From a virus (Duplodnaviria > Heunggongvirae > Uroviricota > Caudoviricetes), in the IMG/VR virus record IMGVR_UViG_2703718777_000029, positions 1 to 16,352 of that record: DNA of 16,352 bases; one strand, 5' to 3'. Below the pieces are notes generated by a model, which saw only the letters and a program-made list of their open reading frames with translations, was not told the DNA's origin and did not search any database. Both the position numbers and the translations under genes were made by a program. Of this stretch, positions 601-16,352 are shown in pieces. The number at the start of each line of letters is the position of its first letter. The stretch's first letter is position 1.

Positions 601-646
601 CTTAAATCTTATCAACGGTAGACATACAAAGCCCATCGTTGGGAAA

Positions 647-675
647 ATCTTATCCATATTTTTTGAAAAATGCAA
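647..675 (-). promoter_or_regulatory. Candidate late promoter (PR'-like) between Q and the terminator
   Basis: Minus strand TTGCAT (675..670), 17-nt spacer, TAAGAT (652..647). Both hexamers are weak matches and the position is inferred by analogy to lambda PR'/qut. Confidence 0.25.
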
Positions 676-706
676 GCATCATGTCGCCATCTTCGGCGAA
701 AATCAT

Positions 707-1459: not shown

Positions 1460-1472
1460 GCTCGTTCTCCAC

Positions 1473-2468: not shown

Positions 2469-2469
2469 C

Positions 2470-3285
2470 TCAATGAACGGTATCGAGCAGCTTTAACAGC
2501 TCAGGGAATCGGGATTCGAAGAAATGCGGCTGCGTCTCGCGCGGATTTGCGGGACTGGTGATGTTCTTGCCGAACATGCAGCCTTTCGCCGTCAGCGACC
2601 AGAATTTTTTGATGTTGTTAATCCCGGTACGGCTGTATCGTTCGCGCTGCTCGACGATCCCCAGCTTCACCATCTGGTGATATGCCTGATTAGCCGTCAG
2701 GCGGATACCATACTGCTTCAGCAGTGCACTCAGCGACAGCGTAGGGCGGCTTGAACCATCTGGCGCATCAGCAGGTGCATCAATGGCATAGATCGGCATA
2801 AGTTCAGGAAGACCAGCTACCTTTGATAATTTCTGGTATGCACCAAGTTTCGAGGAGTTTGACAGATTTAGAGTCTTTGCTGCTGATTCAAGCAGAATGA
2901 CCCCGGATTTAATTTTGTCGGATGTGGTTTCTTCTGGTGATGAATTATGAAGCGCATCAAAAGTACGTATCACTTTTAAGCTGAATGCCGGGCTGATCCA
3001 CATTGCATATGCATAGACCAGCTCTTTACAGACATACGTCCCACCATTGCGCCCCTGAATGGTGATGACAGGAATACTACGGGAATCTCCCGTAGTTTCT
3101 TCTTCCAGTAATTCCACAAGAGCCTTCGTTTCAGGACGACGCATAAACTCGTGAACTTCCAGCGAACGGGAGGAGCGATTCTCACCAGCGGCAAGAAGAG
3201 CAGCTTTCTGAAGGTCGTTAAGACAGTAGTTAGATTCAAAGTACTGGCGCACAGAAACGCCATCAATTACAAGCAACTGATTCAT
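2470..3285 (-). CDS. KilA-N domain protein (putative antirepressor-like), 271 aa
   Basis: MNQLLVIDGVSVRQYFESNYCLNDL...ITIQGRNGGTYVCKELVYAYAMWISPAFSLKVIRTFD is a KilA-N-type N-terminal domain. ATG at 3285 is preceded by GGAGAA; the track ORF extends to 3381 but that extension lacks an RBS. Confidence 0.7.
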   Translation of the reverse strand: MNQLLVIDGVSVRQYFESNYCLNDLQKAALLAAGENRSSRSLEVHEFMRRPETKALVELLEEETTGDSRSIPVITIQGRNGGTYVCKELVYAYAMWISPAFSLKVIRTFDALHNSSPEETTSDKIKSGVILLESAAKTLNLSNSSKLGAYQKLSKVAGLPELMPIYAIDAPADAPDGSSRPTLSLSALLKQYGIRLTANQAYHQMVKLGIVEQRERYSRTGINNIKKFWSLTAKGCMFGKNITSPANPRETQPHFFESRFPELLKLLDTVH

Positions 3286-3371
3286 TGGTTTCTCCACAAA
3301 TTTCGGGACTGCACTCCCTTTTCGTTGATGCAAGATGAACTTACTGCGATTTTTAATAGTTATCAAGGATA

Positions 3372-3391
3372 CACTGTTCATAAATACAGTA
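3372..3391. promoter_or_regulatory. Candidate LexA (SOS) box upstream of the KilA-N gene
   Basis: cACTGTtcataaatACAGta contains the palindromic CTGT-N8-ACAG core (3374-3389) with an AT-rich centre; about 16 of 20 positions match the E. coli LexA consensus TACTGTATATATATACAGTA. Located in the 150-bp gap between rusA and the KilA-N gene. Confidence 0.5.
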
Positions 3392-3436
3392 TCTTTAACG
3401 AGGTAATACCCAAATTTAGGGTGTTGCTCAATTCCG

Positions 3437-3832
3437 TTACCGAGTTGCTAATTTGCAACTCGCTTTTTCGTACTTACTGATAGTGATCTCGACCTTCCCT
3501 TCCGGGATAACCGGTCCCCACTCCACCAGCATTCTTTTCACCTGACTGTCGTCTTCCCACACACCCGCGTGGGTCAGGGCGTCAAACAGCGCCTTGTTAT
3601 AGTTGTCCAGATCGCGGATCCGGTTATCCGGAGGAAACAACACGATCTCCACTGATGCAGGTGCCGACGTTGGTTTTGGCAGACGACGTAACTGCTCAAC
3701 TATTGCTGCACACGCCGCGCTCTGAAATTTTCGCCCCGCCTCGCTTATCAGGCTCTTACCAGCAAATGCCACTTTGTTGGGGTGTCGCCAGTACATGTTC
3801 ACGCTGGGCGGAAAAGGCAGTATTAGCTTCAT
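3437..3832 (-). CDS. rusA: Holliday junction resolvase RusA, 131 aa
   Basis: MKLILPFPPSVNMYWRH... and RDLDNYNKALFDALTHAGVWEDDSQV match the RusA signature (compare E. coli RusA LPWPPSNNRYYRH / [26 protein letters not shown]). Start ATG overlaps the Dam stop (ATGA at 3829-3832). Confidence 0.9.
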   Translation of the reverse strand: MKLILPFPPSVNMYWRHPNKVAFAGKSLISEAGRKFQSAACAAIVEQLRRLPKPTSAPASVEIVLFPPDNRIRDLDNYNKALFDALTHAGVWEDDSQVKRMLVEWGPVIPEGKVEITISKYEKASCKLATR

Positions 3833-4482
3833 GCCACCATCTCCCTGACCAGTTTTTCCGCCTGCTGGCGAACCTGCGCCAGAAATGCCTCACCACATGC
3901 CTCAAGTTCATCGCGCCCGATGTAGCTGATTGCCGGTCCCTTCCAGGTCTTGTCGAAAACAGCAATAGCACCAGCGAAGAAAGCACCTGTTGGCACCTGC
4001 TTTTCGTCTTTCGGGATAAACCAGGCAGGCAGTTCAAAACCAATACGCCCGCGAATAAAAGCAATATGATCTGCATCTTCCGGCCACCACACTTCGCTGG
4101 TGGCAGCTTTGATCAGGAAAACATAGCGCCCGCCTTTATCACGCATGGCACTGGCATGCTTCATGATGTAACGCATGCCGGTGATGTATTGCCCCTCATG
4201 CTGACTGGCGCGGCTGTACGGGGGATTGCCAAAGGCAGCACCTTTAAGCTCCGCAAGACGTTCTGACCAGTCATGCGCCAGCGCGTTGTCTTCCGCCGTG
4301 TAATACGCGGCACATTTGGCGTTATCACCGTCAGTGAACAGATCCAGAACAAACGGACCAAACAAGGTGTTAATTCCCCAGAAAATGTTGTCCGGCGTGC
4401 GCCACTGATCGCCCACTTCCTTCAGTTCATGGGCTGGTTTGTTCCGCAGTTCTACCAGCGCCTGGCAATATTTATTACTCAT
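3829..4482 (-). CDS. Phage DNA N6-adenine methyltransferase (Dam family), 217 aa
   Basis: NPPY catalytic motif (FGNPPYS) typical of N6-adenine methyltransferases; overall resemblance to phage orphan Dam methylases. Start ATG overlaps the stop of the upstream small ORF. Confidence 0.8.
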   Translation of the reverse strand: MSNKYCQALVELRNKPAHELKEVGDQWRTPDNIFWGINTLFGPFVLDLFTDGDNAKCAAYYTAEDNALAHDWSERLAELKGAAFGNPPYSRASQHEGQYITGMRYIMKHASAMRDKGGRYVFLIKAATSEVWWPEDADHIAFIRGRIGFELPAWFIPKDEKQVPTGAFFAGAIAVFDKTWKGPAISYIGRDELEACGEAFLAQVRQQAEKLVREMVA

Positions 4483-4574
4483 TAAGCCCCCACGTAAAAA
4501 GCATCCGCAATGTCTCCGGAAGTACAGCCCGGATGGGCTTCAATGAATTTCTGAACGTCATTTAACAGACTCAT
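4482..4574 (-). CDS. Unannotated small ORF, 30 aa (MSLLNDVQKFIEAHPGCTSGDIADAFYVGA), between the replication and Dam genes
   Basis: Hand-translated from the sequence. ATG at 4574 lies 2 nt after the O-like stop, preceded by AGGGGG; its TAA overlaps the Dam ATG (TAATG at 4480-4484). Below the ORF-track length cutoff. Confidence 0.4.
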   Translation of the reverse strand: MSLLNDVQKFIEAHPGCTSGDIADAFYVGA

Positions 4575-4576
4575 GA

Positions 4577-5407
4577 TCACCCCCTGAATCCTGCCGGGAT
4601 CTGGCTGTAGTCCACGTTGTCGTAACTGGCTTTGAAGTACGGGTCCTCACGTCCGGCTACAGATACCGCAGGAACTTCCCAGGATTCTTCGAAATGACGA
4701 TCCGGACCAAAGAACGTGACAGCCTGTTTCACAAATTGTGTGCCGCTGTTACCCATCGCAGATACCCAGCCCGCGTAGCGTTTCACACCTTCCAGCATGG
4801 TTTCGGGTTTTACCCCCTCATTCAAACGGGCTTTCCAGGCTTTGAAGGCTGCAGATTTTGAATTGCCACCAGCACGTTTGGGGTATGCCAGCCATGCCTG
4901 CTCAAACTCCGGAGAGTATTCCGGTCGGTTTGAACGAACTCGCACAGACTCATCAGCAGATGCACCAACAGCTATTGGTTCATTGACTGGTTCTTTGACT
5001 GGTTCTTTGACTGGTTCAAAAGAGTGACTGGTTCTGGGTGAATCTCCTGCACTACCCCCTGGTGCAACTCCTGCACTACCTGGTGAATTTGCTGCACCAG
5101 ATAGTGAATTATTTGCACTACCCCCTAGTGAATCTCCTGCACCATCCAGATGAAGGAGATAGATATTACTTGAGTTACCTTTTTCACCTTTCCGGGTGAC
5201 TTTTTTTACCAGCCCGGACTCACAAAGGGCCGCAATATGATTCATCACAGAACGTTTGCTAATCTCGCACTGGTCAGCAATATGCTGGTAGCTGGGCCAG
5301 CACTCGCCCTGATCGCTGGCATTATCAGCCAGCTTAATCAGAACCAGTTTTCGCAATGGATTTCCCACTCGAATTTTCATCGCTTTAACCATCAGCTCCA
5401 TACTCAT
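4577..5407 (-). CDS. Replication initiator (O-like) with N-terminal winged-HTH domain and internal repeat linker, 276 aa
   Basis: N-terminal LRKLVLIKLADNASDQGECWPSYQHIADQCEISKRSVMNHIAALCESGLVKK resembles phage replication-initiator HTH domains. Central low-complexity G/S/A-rich linker and EPVKEPVKEPV are encoded by DNA repeats. ATG at 5407 has a strong GGAGGTG RBS and overlaps the upstream stop (ATGA); the track start at 5446 is a TTG. Confidence 0.65.
   Translation of the reverse strand: MSMELMVKAMKIRVGNPLRKLVLIKLADNASDQGECWPSYQHIADQCEISKRSVMNHIAALCESGLVKKVTRKGEKGNSSNIYLLHLDGAGDSLGGSANNSLSGAANSPGSAGVAPGGSAGDSPRTSHSFEPVKEPVKEPVNEPIAVGASADESVRVRSNRPEYSPEFEQAWLAYPKRAGGNSKSAAFKAWKARLNEGVKPETMLEGVKRYAGWVSAMGNSGTQFVKQAVTFFGPDRHFEESWEVPAVSVAGREDPYFKASYDNVDYSQIPAGFRG
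4983..5145. repeat. Iteron-like direct repeats inside the O-like gene (candidate origin of replication)
   Basis: Three tandem copies of TTTGACTGGTTC (4982-5017) plus a fourth TGACTGGTTC (5025-5034), then about five degenerate ~24-bp repeats of the type GAATCTCCTGCACTACCCCCTGGT (5039-5145), followed by an AT-rich stretch. Analogous to lambda ori iterons embedded in O. Confidence 0.5.
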
Positions 5408-5628
5408 GCAGCACCTCCGAGATGCTTCATGTTTTTTCCGGAGCAAAAGGCTATAAGCGGCATACTGATGCGGTAATTACGGCCCAGCGGTTCACAAATC
5501 ACCTTCTGACATTCACGGTCAACCAGGCTAACACGTAGAACATGCCCTGCAGGTGTGGTGTACCACTGACCGGGGCGAGGACAACGGAAAGTCTGATTGG
5601 TAAACCGTTTGAAAATATTCCGGATCAT
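5404..5628 (-). CDS. Hypothetical small protein, 74 aa
   Basis: ATG at 5628 preceded by AAGGGGG and overlapping the Rha stop (ATGA); its stop overlaps the O-like ATG (ATGA). No recognisable domain. Confidence 0.5.
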   Translation of the reverse strand: MIRNIFKRFTNQTFRCPRPGQWYTTPAGHVLRVSLVDRECQKVICEPLGRNYRISMPLIAFCSGKNMKHLGGAA

Positions 5629-6773
5629 TTACGCCCCCTTACCTCTGAAGAGTTCAGCGACGAATGAATAAGACGGGCAAGAAATGCCGCATCGTTAATT
5701 CGGTCATACAGACTTACAGCCAGCGGTGATTCAACTTTTGCCAACATAGGATAAAGCTGCTGCAGCCAGACCTGATGAATTGATGAAATGTAGGAATAGA
5801 GAACGTTGGCGTTATGTGCAACGTCGCTCGGTACAGAGGGCTTTGAAAGCTGTTTCTCCATCTGGTTAAAGGCATTGATGTATGCCTCTTTGAACTGGGC
5901 AGCACGTTTACCAGTGAAACCCATAGCAAGAAACGCAAAGCCGTCGCGGGTTATTTGATAGCAAGGTAGTTTGCGGCCTGTGCAATCGGTGTAATCACTC
6001 ACCGAAAAATTGCGGGCAGTGAATGATGCGGAACATTCAAGCGTGCGGATCTTTTTCAGTACATCGTCATGACGTTTGGAGAAGAAGTTGGCAACAGCCA
6101 GGGATGAAGTAACAGCCTGACCATCAACGATGGCAATTTCAGGTTGAGTGAGGGTTGGGATCGTAGCCATGATGGCAGCCTCCGTTGACTGTGGAAAACT
6201 TCCACCACCGGAGCTGCGAAACTCACTGGTGGCAGACTGAACAGGGTTCGCAGTACCGGCGTCAACGGAGACCGGCGAGCCTTTCGGCTCCCCTGCCCAG
6301 CCCACCATAATTCTGGCGTGCGTGAGCGCGGACGATAAAAAAGACGCTGGCGCGTCGTATATCGCCGTTGACAATTCCGGGCTGCGACCCCCGGCACCCG
6401 CTTTATAAGGTGCCTGAACAGTGTAACGTCCCGGAATTCCAGAATCAATATGCTGGTGGTCCTTCACACTCAACAAAATCACGCCTGAATTTCCACAAAG
6501 GACTAAAGCACTCATGTGGGTAGTCTTTGCGAAGATAGATAACGCGCTGTGTTTCTGGCTCCCAACGAATAACATGAACATAAAGTCCTCTTCCGTCACG
6601 AAACCAGCGGTTAAGTTCCTGCACAACTCGCCCCCCACAGTCAGGTAAAGTTCTCTGTGGTTACTTACAGCCAGGTGATTTGGTAATCTGCATTCATGCC
6701 GTAACAACAGGTGTTCAGAGACGCTGACCACCAGCTGTTGCGACAAACGGTTATTTGCCGTTAAACTGTTCAT
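5625..6773 (-). CDS. Rha-family phage regulatory protein; Rha domain begins at the internal ATG at 6170 (181 aa), while the open frame continues upstream to 6773 (382 aa)
   Basis: MATIPTLTQPEIAIVDGQAVTSSLAVANFFSKRHDDVLKKIRTLE... is a typical Rha N-terminus, and the ATG at 6170 has GGAGG 8 nt upstream. The frame stays open for 201 further codons upstream to an ATG at 6773 that overlaps the CII-like stop (ATGA). The 6171-6773 portion has no recognised domain. Confidence 0.65.
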   Translation of the reverse strand: MNSLTANNRLSQQLVVSVSEHLLLRHECRLPNHLAVSNHRELYLTVGGELCRNLTAGFVTEEDFMFMLFVGSQKHSALSIFAKTTHMSALVLCGNSGVILLSVKDHQHIDSGIPGRYTVQAPYKAGAGGRSPELSTAIYDAPASFLSSALTHARIMVGWAGEPKGSPVSVDAGTANPVQSATSEFRSSGGGSFPQSTEAAIMATIPTLTQPEIAIVDGQAVTSSLAVANFFSKRHDDVLKKIRTLECSASFTARNFSVSDYTDCTGRKLPCYQITRDGFAFLAMGFTGKRAAQFKEAYINAFNQMEKQLSKPSVPSDVAHNANVLYSYISSIHQVWLQQLYPMLAKVESPLAVSLYDRINDAAFLARLIHSSLNSSEVRGRK

Positions 6774-7354
6774 GCGTTAGTTTCTCCACAACCAGAAGCA
6801 ATCGACGCCACGACGCCCGGAGCTGCACACTCGCGGGCGTTACTCTTTTCCGGTGCACAAAAAACACGAAATAACAGTGTTAAATGCTCCTGCCACTTCG
6901 CCATTACTTGGTAGCTGTTCTCTTCGATTTGCTCACGCTCAGCCTGGTCAATAACTCCATCAGCAGTTGCCTTGCGTAAGTACTGGGAATGCTTGCCAAT
7001 CCATTCTATTGACTCCATCAGCCGCTGATTAATGTCACCATTGTCAATGTCATCAATGACCACCAGCGGCACAAACACCCCATAACTACGACGGGCTATT
7101 GCATCTGTTACATGCCTGGTACCACTGGCATCCTGTAAAACCATGGCCCACTCAAGTGGAAAAATTTGATCCCCACCGCTACGCAGTCTGTTATGCAATT
7201 GATCTTTTGCTGGGGTGATATCATCAGATTTATACAAACCAAGAATTTCTGCTGCTTCCTCATAGCCATGAGGTAAATCAGCAATCGTTCTTCGTATTGC
7301 TGCCACCAGCCATGCTGGTTGTTTATCAACTTTCCATTCAGGTTCTTTACCCAC
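6770..7354 (-). CDS. CII-like / YdaT-family early regulator, 194 aa from a GTG start
   Basis: Second gene of the rightward early operon, directly after the Cro-like gene. GTG at 7354 is preceded by GAGGAA at 8-nt spacing. Family assignment is from position and weak sequence impression only. Confidence 0.45.
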   Translation of the reverse strand: MGKEPEWKVDKQPAWLVAAIRRTIADLPHGYEEAAEILGLYKSDDITPAKDQLHNRLRSGGDQIFPLEWAMVLQDASGTRHVTDAIARRSYGVFVPLVVIDDIDNGDINQRLMESIEWIGKHSQYLRKATADGVIDQAEREQIEENSYQVMAKWQEHLTLLFRVFCAPEKSNARECAAPGVVASIASGCGETNA

Positions 7355-7381
7355 GGTTAATTCCTCATTTCTGTGGTGTTT

Positions 7382-7579
7382 TTATGCCGCAGCACTGTTA
7401 GTCTTTTGATATAAAGACACGTCAACTTTCAGTTTCCCGTTAGTAATTTTTTCTAACTGGTACGCTCGGCCTTCAGGAATAATCTCAGGCCACTCTGAAA
7501 CAGACGGATGCTTAATACCTAGGGCTTCGGCGGTTTTACAAACTCCGCCGAAATAATTAATCACGTCGGATTTCCGCAT
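7382..7579 (-). CDS. Cro-like (YdaS-type) HTH DNA-binding protein, 65 aa
   Basis: Small HTH protein (GGVCKTAEALGIKHPSVSEWPEIIPEGRAYQLEKITNGKL) divergent from the CI-like repressor; GGGAGA RBS 7 nt upstream of the ATG. Confidence 0.75.
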   Translation of the reverse strand: MRKSDVINYFGGVCKTAEALGIKHPSVSEWPEIIPEGRAYQLEKITNGKLKVDVSLYQKTNSAAA

Positions 7580-7610
7580 TTCTGTCTCCCGTTAAATTAC
7601 GTTAAGCAGA

Positions 7611-7676
7611 AATGTAGGATATCCAACATACCAATGTCAAGAATCCTACATAGTCATGTGGTAGGATTGCCTACAT
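7611..7676. promoter_or_regulatory. Right operator/promoter region: three operator sites and a PR-like promoter
   Basis: Site 1 ATGTAGGATATCCAACAT (7612-7629) is a near-palindrome. Site 2 (7634-7651) and site 3 (7659-7676) share the half-site ATCC(T/A)ACAT. On the minus strand, TTGACA (7640..7635), 18-nt spacer, TACATT (7616..7611) overlaps site 1 and would drive cro. Confidence 0.6.
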
Positions 7677-8328
7677 GATGAACATGAGTGATCGTATTCG
7701 CCAAAGGCGAAAAGAACTGAACCTGACACAACAAGCACTGGCTGATTTGACTGGTGTGAACCGTGTCACGGTTACTGGATGGGAAAAGGACGACTACCAA
7801 CCAAATGGAGCCAACCTTCAAGCCCTAGCCAACGCACTTAAATGCGATCCTCTGTGGCTTGTTAGCGGAAAAGGCTCGCCTGAACCAAAGATAAATCTAA
7901 AACCTGAAATATTCGCAGTTAAAAAAGTCCCCCTCATCTCGTGGGTTCAGGCGGGTTCATGGACAATGACGGAGCCTGGTGTCAGGAAAGAAGATGCTGA
8001 AGAGTGGGTTTATACTACCGCCCTTGTATCAGAAATGGCATTTGCACTACGGGTCCGTGGTGATTCAATGACCAATCCCCTCGGCTCACCATCGATACCA
8101 GAAGGTTCTATCGTTATCGTAGAGCCAGATATTATTGATACAGAGTGTATTAACGGAAAAATCGTTGTTGCCCATATCAATGGTGGGCAAGAAGCGACAC
8201 TCAAAAAATTTGTTGAGGACTGGCCGAACAGGTATCTCGTCCCACTAAATCCTAACTATAAAACTATTGAATGCGGTGAGAACTGCAGAATAGTTGGTCT
8301 TGTCAAACAAGTAATAATGGATTTTTGA
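7675..8328 (+). CDS. CI-like prophage repressor (XRE-family HTH plus S24 LexA-like autopeptidase domain), 217 aa
   Basis: N-terminal HTH (LNLTQQALADLTGVNRVTVTGWE); C-terminal S24 peptidase signature with GDSM serine (RVRGDSMTNP) and a downstream lysine (EATLKKF). No SD before the ATG cluster at 7675/7678/7684, so the mRNA may be leaderless as for lambda cI. Confidence 0.85.
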   Translation: MMNMSDRIRQRRKELNLTQQALADLTGVNRVTVTGWEKDDYQPNGANLQALANALKCDPLWLVSGKGSPEPKINLKPEIFAVKKVPLISWVQAGSWTMTEPGVRKEDAEEWVYTTALVSEMAFALRVRGDSMTNPLGSPSIPEGSIVIVEPDIIDTECINGKIVVAHINGGQEATLKKFVEDWPNRYLVPLNPNYKTIECGENCRIVGLVKQVIMDF

Positions 8329-8350
8329 CACATCTTCCTCACTATCGCAA

Positions 8351-8375
8351 AACCGGGGTATCCCCGGTTTTTTTA
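8351..8375 (+). terminator. Intrinsic terminator after the cI-like gene (bidirectional shape)
   Basis: AACCGGGG-tat-CCCCGGTT hairpin followed by TTTTTTT and preceded by an A-run. Confidence 0.7.
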
Positions 8376-8390
8376 TGAGCCTATCTTTTT

Positions 8391-8444
8391 ATGTAGGATA
8401 ACCAACATAAACTCTTGACACTCACATGTTGGATATCCTACATT
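8391..8444 (+). promoter_or_regulatory. Left operator/promoter region: two operator sites and a PL-like promoter
   Basis: ATGTAGGATAACCAACAT (8391-8408) and ATGTTGGATATCCTACAT (8426-8443); the latter is the exact reverse complement of right-side site 1. TTGACA (8415-8420), 18-nt spacer, TACATT (8439-8444) mirrors the PR-like promoter. Confidence 0.6.
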
Positions 8445-8602
8445 TGTTTTTAGAGTTGTGGTGAATGCGCAGGCTGATGCGCGAAAGACATTGCAGCTAT
8501 TACGGAAAAGAGCTGTTCGGCGGGGCAATTAAATGCCCGTGAGAGTCTGAAATAACCGCAAGCCGGAGATCAGCACCGATCACCACAACAGCCACTGCTT
8601 TG

Positions 8603-8650
8603 GCGGTACCAGTTTGTACACTTGCTTCCGGCTGGTACCGCTCTTTTTAC
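8603..8650 (+). terminator. Terminator-like hairpin in the early-left leader (possible attenuator or end of a short leader RNA)
   Basis: Perfect 10-bp inverted repeat GCGGTACCAG (8603-8612) / CTGGTACCGC (8632-8641) with a 19-nt loop, followed by TCTTTTTAC. The sequence CGCTCTTTTTA spanning the 3' arm resembles a boxA element. Confidence 0.4.
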
Positions 8651-8785
8651 AAAACAGAGAAGAGCATCACCGGACGACGGGCTCATAACCCAATCCACCC
8701 GGGCGGCTGCCACCGCAGGTGTTCTTCTCTGTTTTGTGGAGAAACCAACCGACCTTGCAGGGTCGATATGATGAGGAGCAGCAAA

Positions 8786-9148
8786 ATGGCTAGCGAACGC
8801 AGTACTGATGTGCAGGCATTTATCGGGGAGTTGGACGGCGGCGTATTTGAAACCAAAATCGGCGCTGTTCTCAGTGAAGTCGCTTCCGGTGTGATGAACA
8901 CGAAAACCAAAGGTAAGGTCTCGCTCAACCTGGAAATCGAACCGTTTGATGAGAACCGTGTGAAAATCAAACACAAACTCTCATATGTTCGCCCGACTAA
9001 CCGCGGGAAAATTTCCGAAGAAGACACCACCGAAACGCCGATGTATGTCAATCGCGGTGGTCGCCTGACTATTCTGCAGGAAGACCAGGGACAATTACTG
9101 ACTCTTGCCGGTGAACCTGACGGAAAACTACGCGCAGCAGGTCATTAA
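8786..9148 (+). CDS. YfdP-like early protein, 120 aa
   Basis: ATG at 8786 preceded by AGGAG at 7-nt spacing; the upstream in-frame extension to 8600 in the track has no RBS and overlaps the leader hairpin. Size and position match CPS-53 YfdP as remembered. Confidence 0.55.
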   Translation: MASERSTDVQAFIGELDGGVFETKIGAVLSEVASGVMNTKTKGKVSLNLEIEPFDENRVKIKHKLSYVRPTNRGKISEEDTTETPMYVNRGGRLTILQEDQGQLLTLAGEPDGKLRAAGH

Positions 9149-9213
9149 TATCGTTCTTAATTAACTGATTATTTATCTCATCACTGAATATCTTTATATA
9201 GTGAGGACTTATT

Positions 9214-10038
9214 ATGTCTCAGAACTTAGACGCAACCGCAATTAATCAAATCCATGCCCTTATTTCTGCTCAGGGTGTTAATGAAATTATCAGTAAGATT
9301 GGTGCCGATGCTGTGGCATTGCCTGAGAATTTCCGCATTCATGATCTGGAAAAATTTAATTTAAATCGCTTCCGTTTCCGTGGTGCGCTTTCCACTGCCA
9401 GCATCGATGACTTTACCCGTTATTCTAAAGATCTTGCAGATGAAGGCACCCGCTGCTTTATCGATGCCGATAATATGCGTGCCGTCAGTGTGCTTAACCT
9501 GGGTACTATTGATGAACCAGGTCACGCAGATAACACCGCCACTCTCAAGCTAAAAAAGACAGCACCGTTTTCTGCTCTGTTGTCTGTTAATGGCGAGCGT
9601 AACTCCCAGAAGTCACTGGCAGAATGGATTGAAGACTGGGCCGACTACCTTGTGGGCTTTGATGCTAATGGTGACGCTATTCAGGCAACAAAAGCGGCTG
9701 CGGCTGTCCGTAAAATCACGATTGAAGCAAACCAGACCGCTGATTTTGAAGATAATGACTTCAGCGGCAAACGCTCCCTGATGGAGTCTGTCGAAGCGAA
9801 GACCAAAGATATTATGCCAGTGGCATTTGAATTTAAATGCGTTCCGTTTGAAGGTCTGAAAGAACGTCCATTTAAATTACGCCTCAGCATTATCACTGGC
9901 GATCGTCCTGTACTGGTTCTGCGCATTATTCAGCTGGAAGCAGTGCAGGAAGAAATGGCTAACGAATTTCGTGATCTGCTTGTTGAGAAATTCAAAGACA
10001 GCAAAGTAGAAACCTTTATTGGTACTTTCACCGCCTGA
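9214..10038 (+). CDS. DUF2303 (YfdQ-like) protein, 274 aa
   Basis: Length and overall character match E. coli CPS-53 YfdQ as remembered; GTGAGGA RBS 6 nt upstream of the ATG. Confidence 0.6.
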
Positions 10039-10050
10039 TTTCATTACTGC

Positions 10051-10072
10051 AAATGCCCCTGCGGGGGCATTT
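10051..10072 (+). terminator. Hairpin between the yfdQ-like and yfdR-like genes (weak terminator or attenuator candidate)
   Basis: AAATGCCCC-tgcg-GGGGCATTT, a 9-bp stem with a 4-nt loop; only a short T tract follows. Confidence 0.3.
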
Positions 10073-10165
10073 ATGGAAACGTAATTAACTCAATAATCGC
10101 CGGATGGTGAGGGCTTCCTTTTACCAGAATTCAGCGCGGTGCAGCGCATATACGTGGAGAACAAA

Positions 10166-10702
10166 ATGTCATTTATTAAAACTTTTTCCGGTAAGCATTT
10201 TTATTATGACAGGATAAATAAAGACGACATCGATATTAACGATATCGCGGTTTCCCTTTCAAATATCTGTCGCTTTGCCGGTCATCTTTCGCACTTCTAC
10301 AGCGTCGCCCAACATGCGGTTCTTTGCAGCCAGCTGGTACCGCAGGAATTTGCTTTTGAAGCGTTAATGCATGATGCAACAGAAGCGTATTGCCAGGACA
10401 TCCCCGCTCCACTGAAACGCCTTCTTCCTGACTATAAACAGATGGAAGAAAAAATAGACGCCGTAATCCGTGAGAAATACGGGTTACCCCCGGTTATGAG
10501 TACGCCCGTGAAATATGCCGATCTCATCATGCTGGCAACCGAACGCCGCGATCTCGGGCTTGATGATGGCTCTTTCTGGCCTGTACTGGAAGGCATCCCG
10601 GCAACAGAGATGTTCAACGTGATTCCACTGGCACCGGGCCATGCCTACGGGATGTTTATGGAACGTTTTAACGAGTTATCGGAGTTACGCAAATGCGCAT
10701 GA
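10166..10702 (+). CDS. HD-domain phosphohydrolase (YfdR-like 5'-deoxynucleotidase), 178 aa
   Basis: HD-domain His and His-Asp motifs (SVAQHAVLCSQ...LMHDATEAY). ATG at 10166 preceded by GGAG; the track GTG at 10139 has no RBS. Length matches E. coli YfdR. Confidence 0.7.
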   Translation: MSFIKTFSGKHFYYDRINKDDIDINDIAVSLSNICRFAGHLSHFYSVAQHAVLCSQLVPQEFAFEALMHDATEAYCQDIPAPLKRLLPDYKQMEEKIDAVIREKYGLPPVMSTPVKYADLIMLATERRDLGLDDGSFWPVLEGIPATEMFNVIPLAPGHAYGMFMERFNELSELRKCA

Positions 10703-11043
10703 ATGTTTTCGAAATGGAAGGGTTTCTTCGCGGGAAATGTGTACCGCGAGATCTGAAAGTGAATGAAACAAATGCTGAGTATCTGGTGCGTAAATTCGAT
10801 GAAGTACGTGCTGAGGCTCGCAACGAGGGTATTAACTATACCGCAAGCCGCCTTGCTGCTGCGTTCAATCACGGATTTATCAATAAGTCTTTACGTGAAG
10901 TTTTCGACGTTACACGCATGATTCTGTCAGCGAAAGATGAGTTGGCTAATGAACCGCACCCGATTGATGGTCTGTCCGGTGAATATGCGGAGAAATCCCT
11001 TGAAGAATGGGCGGAACAGATTCGCAAAGGAGGCAACCAGTGA
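10693..11043 (+). CDS. Hypothetical early protein, 116 aa
   Basis: ATG at 10693 with GGAG 8 nt upstream; overlaps the yfdR-like stop by 10 nt. No recognised domain. Confidence 0.5.
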   Translation: MRMNVFEMEGFLRGKCVPRDLKVNETNAEYLVRKFDEVRAEARNEGINYTASRLAAAFNHGFINKSLREVFDVTRMILSAKDELANEPHPIDGLSGEYAEKSLEEWAEQIRKGGNQ

Positions 11044-11684
11044 ATAACCGCTTTTACATGATGTGCTTGCGTGAAACTGTGGGTAATAACGCTTCATTCC
11101 ATTGCCATAACGGCAATGGTTACAGTTCTAATATCGATCGCGCTCATGTTTACACGCTGGAAGAAGCCCAAAAAGCCTGGAATTGTGGTCGAGATATCGA
11201 TCAGCCTGTTTGCGCTGATAGCGTGGATGCAATGGCTGTGTGGCACGTTGATTGCCAGTACATCCCTACAGAAAACCTGATTGAGCCAGATTGCACTGCG
11301 TATGTGGCCTACAAAAAAGGTAGCTGGAACGGCAACGATGTTTACTGGCTTCAACACGGTGGATTGCCAACAGATGACTTCAGTAAAGCGACCATCTTTA
11401 GCGTCGCCAACAAAAACGAACCAGGAATAGTTTGGTTGCCATTTTCCATTGCTGATTCAGCAAAGCGCCGGACGTTCAATATCAATAACTTTAACCGCAG
11501 AACAATGGTTCAGGGCGCAGGTTTGGTCATGCCTGACTGGTTGAAAAAGCAGAACAGAAGAAAGAAGTCGCGAAGCGGGAAGGTGCGTTGGAATTGTCCG
11601 CATTGCGGAAAAATCACCTGGCAGTACAACCCATATGATTTTGAAGGCTGTAGTGATTACAACTGTGAAGGATGGCGAGAATGA
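11040..11684 (+). CDS. Hypothetical Cys-rich protein with C-terminal zinc-ribbon-like CPHCG...C..C motif, about 214 aa from GTG
   Basis: GTG at 11040 has a perfect AGGAGG SD 7-8 nt upstream and overlaps the upstream stop (GTGA); the alternative ATG is at 11058. Confidence 0.45.
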   Translation: MNNRFYMMCLRETVGNNASFHCHNGNGYSSNIDRAHVYTLEEAQKAWNCGRDIDQPVCADSVDAMAVWHVDCQYIPTENLIEPDCTAYVAYKKGSWNGNDVYWLQHGGLPTDDFSKATIFSVANKNEPGIVWLPFSIADSAKRRTFNINNFNRRTMVQGAGLVMPDWLKKQNRRKKSRSGKVRWNCPHCGKITWQYNPYDFEGCSDYNCEGWRE

Positions 11685-12277
11685 CAATTGACTATCAGGC
11701 ACTGCGTGAAAAGGCAGAGAAAGCAACTAAAGGAAGCTACATCGTAGGGCATACATCTGTTAACCAGCACGGCAATTTAACAGGAGTTTTTGTTTGCCAA
11801 AAATGGAAAGGAGAACTCGGTGGCGTGATTGCGGAATGTCATGTTAACTGCCTGGTTGAAACAGATGTTCAGGCTTATGCAAACGCTGAATTTATTGCAG
11901 CTTTTAATCCAAATGTTGCGCTGACACTACTGGATGAACGGGAAAGAAATCAGCAATACATCAAATCACGCGACCAGGAGAACGAGGAAATTGCGCTAAC
12001 GGTTGGGAAGCTGCGAGTTGAGCTTGAGGAGACAAAATCAAAACTCAACGAGCAGCGTGAGTATTACGAAGGTGTTATCTCCGATGGGAACAAGCGTATT
12101 GCTGAACTGGAAGCGCGGGAAGTTCAATTACCGACTCGCTACGACCTTCGATATGGACACCCGATAAATGCAGATGAGCGACATGTCATGATACCTAAAG
12201 AAAATGGCAGTTGGCTTTACCTGATTGACCTAGAACACGCATTACGCGTCGCTGGCATTCGCATCAAAGGAGAGTGA
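11681..12277 (+). CDS. Ead/Ea22-like protein, 198 aa
   Basis: N-terminus MTIDYQALREKAEKATKGSY is the characteristic Ea22-like start, followed by a coiled-coil-like middle. ATG overlaps the upstream stop (ATGA at 11681-11684); the track start at 11672 adds three codons. Confidence 0.65.
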   Translation: MTIDYQALREKAEKATKGSYIVGHTSVNQHGNLTGVFVCQKWKGELGGVIAECHVNCLVETDVQAYANAEFIAAFNPNVALTLLDERERNQQYIKSRDQENEEIALTVGKLRVELEETKSKLNEQREYYEGVISDGNKRIAELEAREVQLPTRYDLRYGHPINADERHVMIPKENGSWLYLIDLEHALRVAGIRIKGE

Positions 12278-12278
12278 G

Positions 12279-12983
12279 ATGACCACTTTTACCGACAAAG
12301 AACTGATTAAAGAAATCAAAGAGCGCATAGGCAGCTTGGACGTTCGAGACAATATTGAGCGCCGTGCTTATGAAATTGCACTGGCATCGCTGGAAGAAGA
12401 TCCGGTTGCTTATATTTTCAAACATCCGGCCGGGAAATTATTCTGGGCTTTAACGGATGAAAGCAATAAAGAGCAAGCGGACGTTATTCCTGTTTATGCT
12501 GCCGCGCCTGCATCGGTTGTGCCGGATAATACATCAAAGCCTCTTGCTTATGCTTACAAAGAGCTTACGCCTGAGATTATGCGCAACCATTTAGCTGTAT
12601 TCGAGCGATATGGAATAGCCCCAAACGATAGCACTACCACAATTCAGGCACTGCGAATCGCGCTGGATGGTATAGAGCGGAGCGCCGCCATGCTTCAGGG
12701 TGCCAAACCTGTAAGCCAAACTTACAAGTTGAACGAGCTATCGGGCAACTCTCCGGTGACTCCGGATGGTTGGATAAGCTGTAGTGAGCGAATGCCGAAA
12801 AAGAATCAGAACGTACTTATTTCGGTGAATTTCGATAGTGATCTGGTTGAGCCGCTAATATGCTCCGCACGCTATACCGGAAGCACCTTTCGGCGCGGAG
12901 ATGCAACGATTAAGCCGGGTAATGGTATTGAGCAAGCAACTCACTGGATGCCGCTACCAGAACCGCCGCAGGAGGTAAAGTAA
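12279..12983 (+). CDS. DUF551 domain protein, 234 aa
   Basis: C-terminal DGWISCSERMPKKNQNVLISV...EQATHWMPLPEPPQ is typical of DUF551. GGAG RBS; start lies 2 nt after the upstream stop. Confidence 0.65.
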   Translation: MTTFTDKELIKEIKERIGSLDVRDNIERRAYEIALASLEEDPVAYIFKHPAGKLFWALTDESNKEQADVIPVYAAAPASVVPDNTSKPLAYAYKELTPEIMRNHLAVFERYGIAPNDSTTTIQALRIALDGIERSAAMLQGAKPVSQTYKLNELSGNSPVTPDGWISCSERMPKKNQNVLISVNFDSDLVEPLICSARYTGSTFRRGDATIKPGNGIEQATHWMPLPEPPQEVK

Positions 12984-13177
12984 TGAACAACTTAATGACA
13001 ACTAAACAAGTCGCCAACTTCTGTGGAGTTTCAGTATCGACAGTTCTTCGCTGGAACAGCGTAAACAGGAGAACTGGCCAGAAATACAGGCCTGACTTCC
13101 CAGATCCTGATATTAAATCCTGCCCAAATAAATGGGCATCACGCAAGATATACAGGTTTGCGGGAGTTATTGAGTAA
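12983..13177 (+). CDS. Excisionase-like (AlpA/Xis family) HTH protein, 64 aa
   Basis: HTH TTKQVANFCGVSVSTVLRW followed by FPDP...W, resembling lambda Xis and AlpA motifs. GGAGGT RBS; ATG overlaps the upstream TAA (TAATG). Last gene of the early-left operon before the integration module. Confidence 0.55.
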   Translation: MNNLMTTKQVANFCGVSVSTVLRWNSVNRRTGQKYRPDFPDPDIKSCPNKWASRKIYRFAGVIE

Positions 13178-13341
13178 TACGTATTCGTTCAGATGTGAGT
13201 TAACACATCTATGGCACAGAGCTAAACCTAATAAGACTGTCTACTCTGTGCCTGAAGTAGATGTTGCAAATACCACCAGCGAAGCACCAAAATTAATGGT
13301 GCAGGATGATGCAGATAATTCTGATGAAAACACCCAGAATT

Positions 13342-13350
13342 TGTTACAAT
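13342..13350 (+). promoter_or_regulatory. Candidate extended -10 promoter for the AT-rich membrane-protein gene
   Basis: TGtTACAAT (TG, one base, then TACAAT) about 60 nt upstream of the ATG at 13410; no convincing -35 element. Confidence 0.35.
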
Positions 13351-13409
13351 AAGTACATAGTATTAAAGTTTTTTATGAATGTCTAAATGTATCTTATTCA
13401 GAGGTGATA

Positions 13410-14957
13410 ATGGGTGCCAATGGTTTACTAGCAGTCTTCGCCATACTTATTGCTTGGTATACTCTCTTAACGGATGAGAGACGTGTTGATTTAAGGTTAC
13501 GCATATCTAAATTTAATTTAGTATTCATTATCTTTTTTATATCAACAATATTAACAGTTATATATTCTAAGGTTTTGCTAAGTGTTTTCCCGATAAAACC
13601 GATCCCTTGGATACTCGGTTTTAACGAAGATACATTGGCTTTTACTTGTCTTTGTATCATAATTATATTTTTTGGAATTAAAGTACAGGGCAAAATACTA
13701 CCAAAATCAAACCTTACCTGTTGGATCAGTGTTTCAGAAACATATCTGCGCGCAAAAAAAATAGAACAACTAGGATATCTTTTTGATAAATATCACGAGC
13801 AGCTATTCAATATAATCAGCAATAAAAAATGGTATGTTCGCGTACATAATTACTTAGCCCCTTCATTATCTCCCATTGAAATGGATGAAGAGAAGGTAAA
13901 AAAATTACGATTCAAAAAAGTCAGGAGATTTCTGTCAAAGTTTTTCCCTTATGAAGACAAAAGACAAAATGATATTCAATTAAATATATCCAATCTTCTG
14001 AAATCAAAGGTTTTTTCACATTATCTAATTGATACTTACCCTCACGTAGCTATGAAGGCCACCTGCTTACAGCTTAGATATAATTGTGAGTATAATACAA
14101 ATTTCTTTACGTATTTAATATCTAACCCAAACAGCATTATGTATAGGGAGTTACGAGACAACCAAAATCGTTCATATACAGGGGAGTATGCACTCGACGA
14201 AAGTAATGCCTTGCTTAATTTTTATTTAAATGATATTCGCATGGCGATAGATTTAGAAATATGGAAACCTGTGGGTAATTATGTCATTAGCTACATAAAA
14301 AAACAAAAAGGGAGTTCTTGCTTTTACAATCATCCAGATAATTACTATTCAAGTAGTGATGAGCGTTGGGAATGCCCACTCTTCGTTGGATTGACGTTTT
14401 TCGATGTTATGGTATCTACAGCAATATTCAAACGCTCAAAAAACAATATGTGGCTCATGTATTATCGTTGTTTCCTAAAGGAAATACTTGAGAGCTATGA
14501 AAAATCTAGCAGCATAGATGTAAATAGAGAGTTCCCCATGCGATTTGATTATTTAATATATGAGCTAATCAGCCGTTGTAATATATGGGCAGGAGCAACA
14601 GAACACCTCAATTATGATAACTGGACAACAGAAGATAAAGAGCAATCTCCAGAGTTCTTTGCCTCTAAAACCTTGGGGGAAATGATGTATCTGATTATTA
14701 CTTCAGAAAAAATGCATAACAATCAAAAGACATATCTTTTAGAAATCATTATTAAAAGAATGGACTCTCTTGATAAAAAGAAGAAATCTGCTTACTCCAA
14801 GGAAATCTTCAACAATCTTATCCGAGCATTCTCCCCTGCTTCCATTGATATAAATGCAGTAAATAAATTACGGCAACTTTATACAGGTGTTGATCATGTT
14901 CTAAAAAACAAAAATTCAACTTTTGAAGTTGAACTATCAAAATATCCTGACCAATAA
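13410..14957 (+). CDS. Hypothetical membrane-anchored protein, 515 aa (three N-terminal TM helices plus ~420-aa soluble domain); candidate defence or superinfection-exclusion moron
   Basis: ATG at 13410 preceded by GAGGTG; the track start at 13404 is a GTG. Hydrophobic segments LLAVFAILIAWYTLL, LVFIIFFISTILTVIYSKVLLSVF and LAFTCLCIIIIFFGI. The gene and its flanks are much more AT-rich than the rest of the window. No known domain recognised. Confidence 0.7.
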   Translation: MGANGLLAVFAILIAWYTLLTDERRVDLRLRISKFNLVFIIFFISTILTVIYSKVLLSVFPIKPIPWILGFNEDTLAFTCLCIIIIFFGIKVQGKILPKSNLTCWISVSETYLRAKKIEQLGYLFDKYHEQLFNIISNKKWYVRVHNYLAPSLSPIEMDEEKVKKLRFKKVRRFLSKFFPYEDKRQNDIQLNISNLLKSKVFSHYLIDTYPHVAMKATCLQLRYNCEYNTNFFTYLISNPNSIMYRELRDNQNRSYTGEYALDESNALLNFYLNDIRMAIDLEIWKPVGNYVISYIKKQKGSSCFYNHPDNYYSSSDERWECPLFVGLTFFDVMVSTAIFKRSKNNMWLMYYRCFLKEILESYEKSSSIDVNREFPMRFDYLIYELISRCNIWAGATEHLNYDNWTTEDKEQSPEFFASKTLGEMMYLIITSEKMHNNQKTYLLEIIIKRMDSLDKKKKSAYSKEIFNNLIRAFSPASIDINAVNKLRQLYTGVDHVLKNKNSTFEVELSKYPDQ

Positions 14958-15044
14958 TGATATATTTATCCATCACCTGCTTATATTGCAGGTGGTATCC
15001 TGAACCCAGTTGATCTATCAGTCAAAAAGTTAATCGTATAGCGT

Positions 15045-15096
15045 TCAAATATAAGAATAATGGCAGCTCTCGCTTTACGCTCAAAGCAGGCTGCCA
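15045..15096 (-). terminator. Candidate terminator between the convergent membrane-protein and integrase genes
   Basis: Inverted repeat TGGCAGC (15061-15067) / GCTGCCA (15090-15096) with internal GCTTT/AAAGC pairing, followed on the minus strand by a U-rich tract. A second hairpin CACCTGC-ttatatt-GCAGGTG lies at 14974-14994. Confidence 0.35.
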
Positions 15097-15128
15097 AATT
15101 TGATTACATACTGGCTGGGCATACTGTA

Positions 15129-16352
15129 TCAATTGGAGCATGAGTTAGTACAAGTAACAATCGATTCAACTCTCTCCCACCATGCCTGGTAGGCTTTACG
15201 CTGTTCTTCTAGATAATCGCTCTTATCATAAACTTGCCATACCCCTGGCAGTTTATGACCTAGCATTATTTCTGCAATATGAGGCTCAGTAAGATCAGAA
15301 AAGTTTGTTCGTGCTGTTCGTCTCAAATCATGAAGAGACCAATGAGGGAATTGATACCCCAAACGCCGCCATGCGTACTGCATTAAATTGTAAGGCAGCG
15401 ACTGCAATGATGTCCGACCAACGGGTTCCCTGCTTCCTTCCTTAGTAAAAAGCATATCGGAACCATTGTTCATAGAGATAGCGTACTTTATAAGCTCTTC
15501 AACCGGTTCAATAATGGGTCGCTTTAGCGGTTCGCCTGTTATCTCCCCAGTCTTATGTCGTTCTGGTGGTACAGTCCATACTTTATTAATGAAATCAAAA
15601 TCGTCCACCCGGGCAGTAATTAGCTCTGAACTACGGCAACCAAAATGCAGCAATAGTTTAATGAAGGCCCGGTATTTAGGAACCATTCGAGAACCATCGA
15701 TCGCAGCATAAAGGATTTTAATTTCATCATGTGTCAGAAACCGTTTCTTCTGACCTTTACGGATATCCATATCTTTACCCGTGATATCCGACAGCGGGCG
15801 AGTTTCAATGAGCTTTCTCTTATACGCCCAGACATGGGCCTGCTTTGCGTTAATTAGCAATCGGTCTGCTATTGCTGGAGTCTTAGTGCTAAGAGGCTCC
15901 AGGACCTCTAACCAATCATGCAATGTAGCTACATCGTGAGGGATACTCCCGATTTTAGAGAACAGGTGCAGTTCAAATGAGCGGAGTATCTGCTCAGAAC
16001 CTTTTTTATTTTTTACACAATATGCTGCATACCAGGCACGGATCACAGACTCCACCGTCATGGCTTCAGTAGCTTTGCGTTTTTCTACCTGCTTGACCAA
16101 TCGTGGATTGCGGTTTGACTCGAGTTCACCACGAAGACGGATAACTTCTTCTCTGGCCTCTTTTAATCCAGTTGCCGGGTAAGTTCCGATATCAAGACGC
16201 TCACCTTTCCCTGCCCATTGATAACGATATTGGAATACTACGCGACCTTTCGGTGATACTCTGACAGACAGACCATCACGATCGGATTTAACCAAAACCT
16301 TATCACGTTCCTTTCCAACGACTGAACGCAACCACGCATCAGACAGCGCCAT
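15129..16352 (-). CDS. int: Tyrosine recombinase / phage integrase (P4-type), 407 aa
   Basis: N-terminus MALSDAWLRS...GLSVRVSPKGRVVFQYRYQ matches P4-like integrase arm-binding domains. C-terminal catalytic signature includes HDLRRT (HxxR), GHKL...VYDKSDY (His and Tyr nucleophile). The ATG sits at the last three bases of the window, so promoter and att lie outside. Confidence 0.9.
   Translation of the reverse strand: MALSDAWLRSVVGKERDKVLVKSDRDGLSVRVSPKGRVVFQYRYQWAGKGERLDIGTYPATGLKEAREEVIRLRGELESNRNPRLVKQVEKRKATEAMTVESVIRAWYAAYCVKNKKGSEQILRSFELHLFSKIGSIPHDVATLHDWLEVLEPLSTKTPAIADRLLINAKQAHVWAYKRKLIETRPLSDITGKDMDIRKGQKKRFLTHDEIKILYAAIDGSRMVPKYRAFIKLLLHFGCRSSELITARVDDFDFINKVWTVPPERHKTGEITGEPLKRPIIEPVEELIKYAISMNNGSDMLFTKEGSREPVGRTSLQSLPYNLMQYAWRRLGYQFPHWSLHDLRRTARTNFSDLTEPHIAEIMLGHKLPGVWQVYDKSDYLEEQRKAYQAWWERVESIVTCTNSCSN

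Follow-up and report, generated by a model that had tools for sequence, protein, structure and literature searches.

An AT-rich single-gene cassette between xis and int of a lambdoid prophage and its candidate role in anti-phage defence

Why does a single AT-rich gene lie between the excisionase (xis) and integrase (int) genes of a prophage, and what might its product do there? We examined this question in a 16,352-nt stretch of Caudoviricetes DNA (IMG/VR record IMGVR_UViG_2703718777_000029, positions 1 to 16,352), which in its full length is called the window here. The window corresponds to the early/left arm of a lambdoid, Shiga toxin (Stx)-type prophage of Escherichia coli; in complete genomes yjjG adjoins its integrase gene, and the phage records nearest to it are those of Stx2c- and Stx1a-converting phages. 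An initial annotation, made from the bare sequence, had singled out positions 13178-15128 as a horizontally acquired block that encodes one membrane-anchored protein of 515 amino acids (aa), and had placed this gene, as a moron or defence-island gene, in a possibly undescribed family, with abortive infection or superinfection exclusion as the most plausible function of its product. On balance, and with moderate confidence, we favor the reading that the 515-aa protein is a single-gene anti-phage defence factor of the lysogen, a role suggested by the position of its gene.

Mobility of the cassette and cargo of the xis-int slot

The G+C content of the DNA was 0.315-0.343 in every 400-nt interval from 13201 to 15000, as against 0.42-0.57 in most of the remaining window. 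The values were 0.328 for the 515-aa gene (0.31 at third codon positions), 0.337 for 13178-15128, and 0.475 for the rest of the window, close to the ~30% versus 50% that had been judged by eye, with the remainder slightly below that guess. In sister E. coli prophages with the same xis and int, nucleotide homology to the window ended at 13225-13271 and returned at 15078-15147. The block first delimited was thus real, but these breakpoints refine its limits to those listed in Table 1. A segment with ~80% nucleotide identity (80-82%) was present in Morganella morganii (13275-15088), Pectobacterium aroidearum (13247-15087), and Yersinia aldovae (13215-15105), and the DNA around these copies was unrelated to the E. 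coli prophage. Because the shared segment sits in unrelated DNA, the moving unit can be set at ~1.8 kb, made up of ~145 nt upstream of the coding sequence (CDS), the CDS itself, and ~130 nt downstream. In most of the genomes compared, the homologous genes were lower in G+C than their hosts, for example 0.33 versus 0.50 in Enterobacter and 0.39 versus 0.54 in Pseudomonas. These comparisons mark the block as a cassette with a single gene that is exchanged horizontally, in line with the acquisition that its composition had first suggested.

We then compared the same site in 20 sister elements with the same flanks (7 found by xis similarity, 10 taken evenly down the integrase match list, and 3 phage records). 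None of these elements had an empty slot; each carried one small module there, which was a single gene in all cases but one, where it consisted of two genes, and at least 10 cargo types were distinguished between the conserved xis/hairpin and int flanks. Dsr1 was annotated by RefSeq in three elements, and an open reading frame (ORF) of the same size, 1275 aa, was present in Stx2c_JNE082796. An AIPR protein equivalent to AbiU was identified by PADLOC (E 2.6e-111), and a dGTPase-family protein was found in Stx2c_EH0474 (PDB 9vwa, E 2e-113) as well as in O157:H7 FRIK944, the latter from RefSeq annotation. Anti-phage activity is well established for Dsr1, AbiU, and dGTPases. The other cargo types were a CHAT-domain protein (710 aa), a TPR protein (646 aa), a DUF6602 protein (451 aa), and unnamed proteins of 413 aa (phrog_30399), 271 aa, and 239 aa (phrog_8440) together with a pair of 160 and 150 aa; the 413-, 271-, and 239-aa proteins had no PADLOC match. 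With variable cargo between conserved flanks and validated defence systems among the alternatives, the slot has the character of an anti-phage defence hotspot, and Dsr1, AbiU, and the dGTPase as alternative cargo bear out the moron or defence-island position proposed initially. No description of a lambdoid xis-int defence hotspot was found in the literature searched, whose coverage was incomplete and left recent work on E. coli prophage defence outside it; the xis-int hotspot of yjjG-integrating lambdoid prophages thus appears to be undescribed so far.

Since the slot was occupied in 20 of 20 relatives, it is a site of cassette replacement and not of simple insertion. Both junction zones coincide with conserved hairpins, which are the presumed terminators of the xis operon and of int, and cargo is probably exchanged through homologous recombination in these conserved hairpin-bearing flanks between related prophages. 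The integrase type was present, at ≥95% identity, in 698 of 5426 complete E. coli genomes (~13%), of which 35 carried the 515-aa gene. The gene (≥80% of 12900-15300) was found in 35 genomes, and 35 genomes had an integrase at ≥99% identity, the 664 other integrases lying at 95-99%. This suggests that the cargo and its int allele move together as one haplotype, the two sets of 35 being matched by number alone.

Outside E. coli, homologues with 20-80% identity to the 515-aa protein had known or candidate defence genes within 10 kb in at least 9 of 15 neighborhoods (a raw count with no background rate), and the recurrence in known defence islands for which the initial annotation had asked was therefore seen. 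In Spongiibacter, the gene starts 10 nt past hsdR; the type I restriction-modification (R-M) island in question encodes an SLFN/AlbA-type ATPase as well. In both Vibrio crassostreae and V. parahaemolyticus, the gene is preceded by an operon for type I R-M and by an integrase fragment, with DUF3644/EC042_2821 proteins beyond, and hsdR is nearby in V. intestinalis and Arsukibacterium. The Hachiman genes HamA/HamB (E 3.7e-101 and 3.4e-236) end ~460 nt upstream of the homologue in V. ouci. Immediate neighbors are PDC-S71 (E 5e-206) and an HNH protein in Y. aldovae, and a TIR-like gene and integrase fragments in Morganella; two HNH proteins are encoded upstream in Pseudomonas. In a P4-like satellite of Enterobacter cloacae, the gene comes after the alpha primase gene and adjoins a type VI retron reverse transcriptase (RT; E 6.8e-82) and PDC-S35/TIR. 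Many family members lie in chromosomal R-M islands. A genome scan with the closer family alignment yielded 8 loci, which is below the number that a statistical neighborhood test needs.

The Enterobacter satellite sits at ssrA/smpB, and its psu-int hotspot holds an HEPN_LA2681 protein. At the far end of the element, the homologue, a 224-aa protein of unknown function, the type VI retron RT, and PDC-S35/TIR are clustered behind the alpha primase gene, and P4-like elements may therefore have a second site for cargo there.

A gene for a protein of 190-225 aa often lies downstream of the homologues, and a two-gene system was considered for this reason. It was rejected because the downstream proteins were mutually unrelated in five loci. 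The same observation argues that the family has no conserved partner gene and is organized as a single gene; the upstream neighbor genes also differed in every context.

The 515-aa protein and its family

The 515-aa protein matched no family at E ≤ 10 in Pfam-A, NCBIfam, or PADLOC-DB v2.0.0 (5027 hidden Markov models; 2023 release), consistent with the initial failure to recognize a catalytic motif in it. Among 33 diverse members of its family, none matched Pfam at E ≤ 0.01, and PADLOC returned only four single-member matches at chance level (best E 0.0033). No similarity to PDB entries was found with the protein sequence or the family profile, and no specific fold match was obtained. The sole library match was phrog_13820 (PHROGs v4, function unannotated; E 9.4e-40, 137.8 bits), a distant one in which residues 4-459 align with positions 10-445 of the 505-position profile and the C-terminal 55 residues stay outside. 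By tblastn, relatives with ~20% identity and 87-89% coverage were detected on three Klebsiella "phage" records of 110-120 kb (CP058330.1, CP101896.1, and CP101890.1), which are probably phage-plasmids and the source of phrog_13820. The identical protein is present on 330 contigs, and each source that names it calls it a hypothetical protein; in RefSeq strain 146N4, whose DNA is 99.9% identical over 12900-15300, it is WP_032355589.1. Neither WP_032355589 nor phrog_13820 was mentioned in the literature searched; the DefensePredictor supplements (PMC13092281) included neither this accession nor sequence strings. An O-antigen modification enzyme or a transporter, named in the initial annotation as families that would argue against its proposal, was rejected: there was no family similarity, and three transmembrane (TM) helices with a predicted cytoplasmic domain do not fit such a protein.

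An exhaustive profile search recovered 867 clusters (50% identity level), and for 434 of these E was ≤ 1e-30; among the best 150 listed of the 867, nearly all were 500-620 aa long and matched end to end. A word-indexed search gave 39 clusters, all "hypothetical," from Enterobacterales, Pseudomonas, Vibrio, Shewanella, Spongiibacter, and one Sphingomonas, and a second such search with the diverse alignment returned the same 38 close clusters and nothing further. None of the ten clusters that were looked up had a named member. Full-length conservation with a fixed architecture extends from 20% to 83% identity, which, across 867 clusters, argues for purifying selection on the protein. In Halanaerobacter jeridensis (27% G+C, Halanaerobiales), an ORF of 421 aa (7893-9158) gave a weak, partial match to residues 196-446, with 29% identity. 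This ORF could encode a shorter family member, perhaps one that lacks the membrane domain; the family would then reach beyond the Proteobacteria. On the evidence of these searches, the family is large, of fixed architecture, uncharacterized in the libraries searched, and found mainly in Gammaproteobacteria. The suspicion of an undescribed family thus held, in that Pfam, NCBIfam, and PADLOC do not name it and its PHROGs match has no function. The protein was likewise confirmed as the membrane-anchored product of a single gene from an unknown family, but with 867 clusters that family is neither small nor phage specific.

Kyte-Doolittle analysis showed three N-terminal hydrophobic segments, in agreement with the helices at residues 3-19, 34-59, and 73-93 of an AlphaFold model and with the three TM helices first read from the sequence. 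The model is all-alpha (mean predicted local distance difference test score, 87; predicted template modeling score, 0.81; 29 homologues in the alignment), and a fold search with it matched only generic, non-catalytic helical repeats, so that the model and structure searches which the initial annotation had called for led to no characterized family. The three hydrophobic segments were present in 51 of 61 family members, and this conservation of TM helices, together with that of residues in the TM domain and its loop, is as expected for an abortive-infection effector. Over the same 61 members, the mean number of lysines and arginines was 4.0 in the TM1-TM2 loop and 4.3 past TM3, compared to 0.25 in the N-terminal tail and 1.7 in the TM2-TM3 loop. 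By the positive-inside rule, these counts place the N terminus outside and the large domain in the cytoplasm. Since the soluble domain is predicted to be cytoplasmic, masking of the surface or of a receptor is disfavored.

Conserved positions were found in both parts of the protein. The closer homologues show no variation at R25, L30, Y52, W67, or G70, and in the periplasmic loop W-x-x-G is kept in the family-wide consensus. Because conserved residues lie inside the membrane domain and in its periplasmic loop, the membrane domain is more than an anchor. In the soluble domain, S242, E247, F331, and M334 are invariant in relatives that are 20-44% identical, and N307, H346, E374, and D495 are nearly so.

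Expression signals, variant copies, and flanking genes

The features of the locus are collected in Table 1. The window runs from the Q antiterminator gene through replication and regulatory genes, cro, a LexA-like repressor gene, yfdPQR, ea22, and a DUF551 gene to xis, the 515-aa gene, and the convergent integrase gene. The profile matches of the two flanking genes agree with the excisionase-like and integrase genes of the initial annotation, and xis, which closes the early-left operon, forms the conserved flank on the left side of the slot. In the RefSeq entry NZ_CP076237.1, xis is un-annotated and a gap appears between the DUF551 gene and the 515-aa gene.

Table 1. Features of the xis-int region; positions are those of the window
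Feature	Position	Strand	Properties
Excisionase gene xis, 64 aa	12983-13177	+	phrog_1553 over full length, E 1.6e-35; weak HTH_17 match
Left flanking hairpin	13213-13252	+	GGCACAGAG ... CTCTGTGCC; 9-bp perfect arms; -17.9 kcal/mol, z -3.3
Mobile AT-rich cassette	~13265-15088	+	Candidate promoter region, leader, CDS, terminator-like hairpin, ~90-nt tail; limits from cross-genome comparison
Candidate extended -10 element	13342-13350	+	TGTTACAAT; -10 hexamer 13345-13350; transcription start expected near 13357
Shine-Dalgarno region	13400-13406	+	AGAGGTG; GAGG at 13401-13404, five nt from ATG; CAGAGGT invariant in four-genus alignment
CDS of 515-aa protein	13410-14957	+	From ATG; ORF extends to 13404 if GTG is the start
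N-terminal membrane domain, aa 1-95	13410-13694	+	Three TM helices; short periplasmic loop P-x-P-W-x-x-G-F with invariant W67 and G70
Cytoplasmic all-alpha domain, aa 99-515	13704-14954	+	Helical-repeat-like; blocks LYRELRDNQNxSYTGEYxLDESN, (H/N)MWLMY, REFPxRFDYLIY, VDHVLK..STFE
A6 homopolymer, codons 433-435	14707-14712	+	Site of +1 frameshift in other carriers
Terminator-like hairpin	14972-14996	+	15 nt past stop; 9-bp stem, 7-nt loop, no U-tract; -16.8 kcal/mol, z -3.5
Hairpin past integrase stop	15061-15096	-	-21.5 kcal/mol, z -2.1; followed by T-rich run; right flank and recombination zone
Tyrosine integrase gene, 407 aa, convergent	15129-16352	-	Pfam Arm-DNA-bind_3, Phage_int_M, Phage_integrase; conserved right flank

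TGNTAYAAT occurs once in the window, and chance predicts 1.4 occurrences, so the TGTTACAAT motif by itself carries no weight. It is present where it was first read, and it is invariant, 67-68 nt before the ATG, in the E. coli, Morganella, Yersinia, and Pectobacterium cassettes; this invariance at a fixed spacing across four genera is the support for a candidate promoter. Consensus promoter and terminator scans gave counts at chance level and called none of the features of the cassette. The ~65 nt that precede the -10 element (13275-13341; ACCAGCGAAG.AC.AAAA.TAATGGTGCAGGATG.TGCAGATAATTCTGAT) are strongly conserved in the four genera, to a degree comparable with the whole cassette (80-82%). This stretch may be a regulatory site or else the remnant 3′ end of an ancestral neighbor gene. 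A small ORF at 13158-13352, which reads through this stretch, was rejected as a gene and is considered non-coding, having no PHROG or Pfam match and a stop codon that is not conserved in Yersinia.

The Shine-Dalgarno sequence had been called good at the outset, and its position and invariance support that view. The same can be said of the hairpins reported to bracket the gene: all three listed in Table 1 were more stable than shuffled sequence, and a simple terminator scan missed each of them. The left hairpin was also found in sister prophages with other cargo and in the Yersinia copy of the cassette; it lies where the sister homology ends and is probably a terminator or insulator after xis. 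For the hairpin that follows the 515-aa gene, 0 of 200 shuffles were equally stable, and its stem changes from CACCTGC/GCAGGTG in E. coli to CACCAGC/GCTGGTG in Morganella, with one compensatory pair change. The hairpin at the right flank is probably the int terminator. A layout of candidate promoter, gene, and terminator-like hairpin with foreign composition corresponds to the anatomy of a moron, and would fit expression from a repressed prophage in insulation from the early-left operon.

Not all copies of the gene are intact. In the aligned Stx1a-phage record, Stx1_JNE122398 (LC727891.1), the A6 tract is A7, so that the protein breaks off beyond residue ~436. In each of the 12 Stx1a-phage records the match is divided into two pieces (1,546 nt versus 1,545), consistent with the same frameshift, and the gene is intact in the 12 Stx2c phages. 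The A7 frameshift could be simple decay, or it could reflect slippage-prone on/off switching. Shortened cluster members, of 460, 332, and 301 aa and others, also exist. In NZ_CP144930.1, from a human E. coli isolate, the region 12900-15300 is split by an IS5-like element, ISKpn26, into two pieces over 3.6 kb.

Candidate functions and known systems

If the 515-aa protein is a defence factor, its cassette, consisting of the candidate sigma-70 extended -10 promoter, ribosome-binding site, gene, and terminator-like hairpin, would be a self-contained moron in the variable xis-int slot, and the candidate promoter would drive its expression in the lysogen. The three TM helices would hold an all-helical, solenoid-like domain of ~420 residues on the cytoplasmic face of the inner membrane, where this domain would sense either a component of the phage or a change that infection causes at the membrane. 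As the effector, the conserved membrane domain would then disturb membrane integrity or energization, leading to abortive infection. Such a sensor/effector division of labor is proposed by analogy: TM modules are thought to act as suicide effectors in known defence systems (Rousset et al. 2022, PMC9122126), and helical-repeat domains sense phage proteins, as stated for the alpha-solenoid C-terminal domain of DSR2 (PMC11850899). Within the defence readings, we propose the membrane-effector abortive mechanism only tentatively, with rather less than even confidence in it. There is a fair chance, somewhat short of an even one, that the protein represents a new and widespread single-protein immune family, with a helical-repeat sensor fused to a three-helix membrane effector and with neither an enzyme domain nor a partner, and that the slot is an undescribed hotspot.

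Several points weigh against a defence role of this kind. The function is read from the position of the gene, and guilt by association may mislead; of the other cargo types found in the slot, roughly one in two has no known function either. The protein had no PADLOC match, candidate (PDC) families included, which also means that the family was missed by earlier systematic screens. The Stx1a-phage copies are frameshifted, and the gene is therefore dispensable there. At the candidate promoter, the promoter scan detected no canonical pair of -35 and -10 elements, a good -35 is missing, and the bare motif is no more frequent than expected by chance; the hairpin that follows the gene has no U-tract and was passed over by the terminator scan. 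At residue 346 (14445-14447), the near-invariant family H of the HMWLMY block is N in the E. coli protein. Finally, the polar residues E247, E374, D495, N307, and S242 are conserved family-wide and could mark an unrecognized catalytic site, in which case the soluble domain would be an enzyme and not a sensor.

Such an enzyme, an unrecognized all-alpha effector with E247, E374, D495, and N307 as its active site, would act on a membrane-proximal substrate (a lipid, a nucleotide, or a cell-wall precursor) in defence or in another role. Beyond the invariance of E247, it would account for the presence of E374, D495, and N307 in at least 90% of the relatives that are 20-44% identical and for the loop-rich, polar character of the most conserved block, residues 236-266. 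We consider it improbable, as searches of Pfam, NCBIfam, and PDB, by sequence or fold, returned no enzyme and the top structural matches were non-catalytic helical repeats. Furthermore, H346 is replaced not only in the E. coli protein and several close relatives, but also in several Vibrio and Shewanella members, which disfavors a catalytic role for this residue. Superinfection exclusion at the inner membrane, by which genome entry would be blocked without cell killing in the manner of P22 SieA, Sie2009, HK97 gp15, or T4 Imm, is another alternative. Temperate phages classically carry genes for membrane exclusion proteins close to int, and the 515-aa protein is an inner-membrane protein whose prophage gene adjoins int and has a candidate promoter of its own; the short periplasmic TM2-TM3 loop, with invariant W67 and G70, could contact an ejection complex. 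Known exclusion proteins are, however, small and specific to phage lineages, whereas the 515-aa protein has a 420-residue cytoplasmic domain; searches of PHROGs, PADLOC, and folds showed it to resemble none of them in sequence or fold. With 867 clusters, many of them in chromosomal R-M islands, a general defence function is favored over a phage-specific exclusion protein, and the occurrence of the family in R-M/Hachiman islands and P4-like satellites, in hosts that extend from Gammaproteobacteria to the weak, partial match in Halanaerobacter, likewise fits a general defence module better. We therefore regard exclusion as unlikely.

The gene could also be cargo unrelated to defence: it might serve lysogenic conversion, fitness, or virulence, act against defence systems, or be no more than a passenger, selfish or decaying, at an insertion-tolerant site. 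The cargo types without known function would be compatible with this, as would the frameshifts in Stx1a phages, the shortened cluster members, and the one IS5-like interruption of the region, and the carriers include many Shiga-toxin-producing strains. Outside E. coli, however, the neighbors are repeatedly R-M, Hachiman, retron, and TIR genes and not virulence loci, and a large domain predicted to be cytoplasmic is a poor fit to a surface or secreted virulence role. On this evidence a function outside defence seems quite unlikely. We retain anti-phage defence as the preferred reading, and present the 515-aa gene, whose function is read from its position, as a concrete candidate and not yet as a discovery.

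If this reading is correct, the protein would add a new sensor-plus-membrane-effector architecture to bacterial immunity, and a function would be assigned to a family of several hundred clusters that is unnamed in the sources examined. The slot is a compact hotspot for single modules, and the prophage family that carries it occurs in ~13% of complete E. coli genomes, Stx1a- and Stx2c-converting phages included. With three validated defence types and at least six uncharacterized cargo types, the slot offers a shortlist for discovery, in which the CHAT, TPR, and DUF6602 genes and the other unknown cargo genes are further candidate defence systems. In Shiga-toxin-producing E. coli, prophage defence genes affect which phages, whether therapeutic or carrying a further Stx, infect the lysogen.

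A single-gene defence moron in a prophage hotspot would be of a well-known kind, whereas the defence libraries searched contain no match to the protein family or to its architecture. With TM suicide effectors (lambda RexB; the TM effectors of CBASS, Pycsar, and retrons; the Rst "hydrolase + TM" system), the 515-aa protein shares a short multi-helix membrane module and a defence context, and no sequence similarity to known TM effectors was found with PADLOC. Those effectors are usually separate proteins, or are fused to nucleotide-sensing or enzymatic domains, and are activated by a partner; the 515-aa protein has a fused helical domain and no partner. An all-alpha, repeat-like domain in a defence context is likewise shared with helical-repeat sensors, namely the TPR/HEAT-like arms of Avs/STAND proteins and the alpha-solenoid of DSR2 (PMC11850899).

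Membrane proteins for exclusion are made by prophages and phages such as P22 (SieA), lactococcal phages (Sie2009), HK97 (gp15), and T4 (Imm), and the Sie2009 gene is also int-proximal. Like these, the 515-aa protein is a prophage-encoded membrane protein and is predicted to be expressed apart from the lytic genes. It differs in being much larger, in having a big cytoplasmic domain, and in belonging to a family that is widespread outside prophages.

A moron, in the Hendrix/Juhala concept, is a unit of promoter, gene, and terminator in lambdoid phages. The cassette resembles morons in its predicted autonomy, in its foreign composition (G+C 0.328 versus 0.475 in its phage surroundings), and in placing a promoter-like element and a terminator-like hairpin between backbone genes. 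In classic morons, the flanking genes are adjacent in related phages; here, by contrast, the slot was filled in all 20 related elements. The slot resembles the P2/P4 defence hotspots (Rousset et al. 2022, PMC9122126), where a fixed position likewise holds a different small system in each element and validated systems are among them. The homologue in the P4-like satellite lies outside the published psu-int hotspot and follows the alpha primase gene instead. The xis-int slot differs from the P2/P4 hotspots in its position and in the phage family that carries it, the lambdoid, yjjG-integrating prophages that include Stx1a and Stx2c phages.

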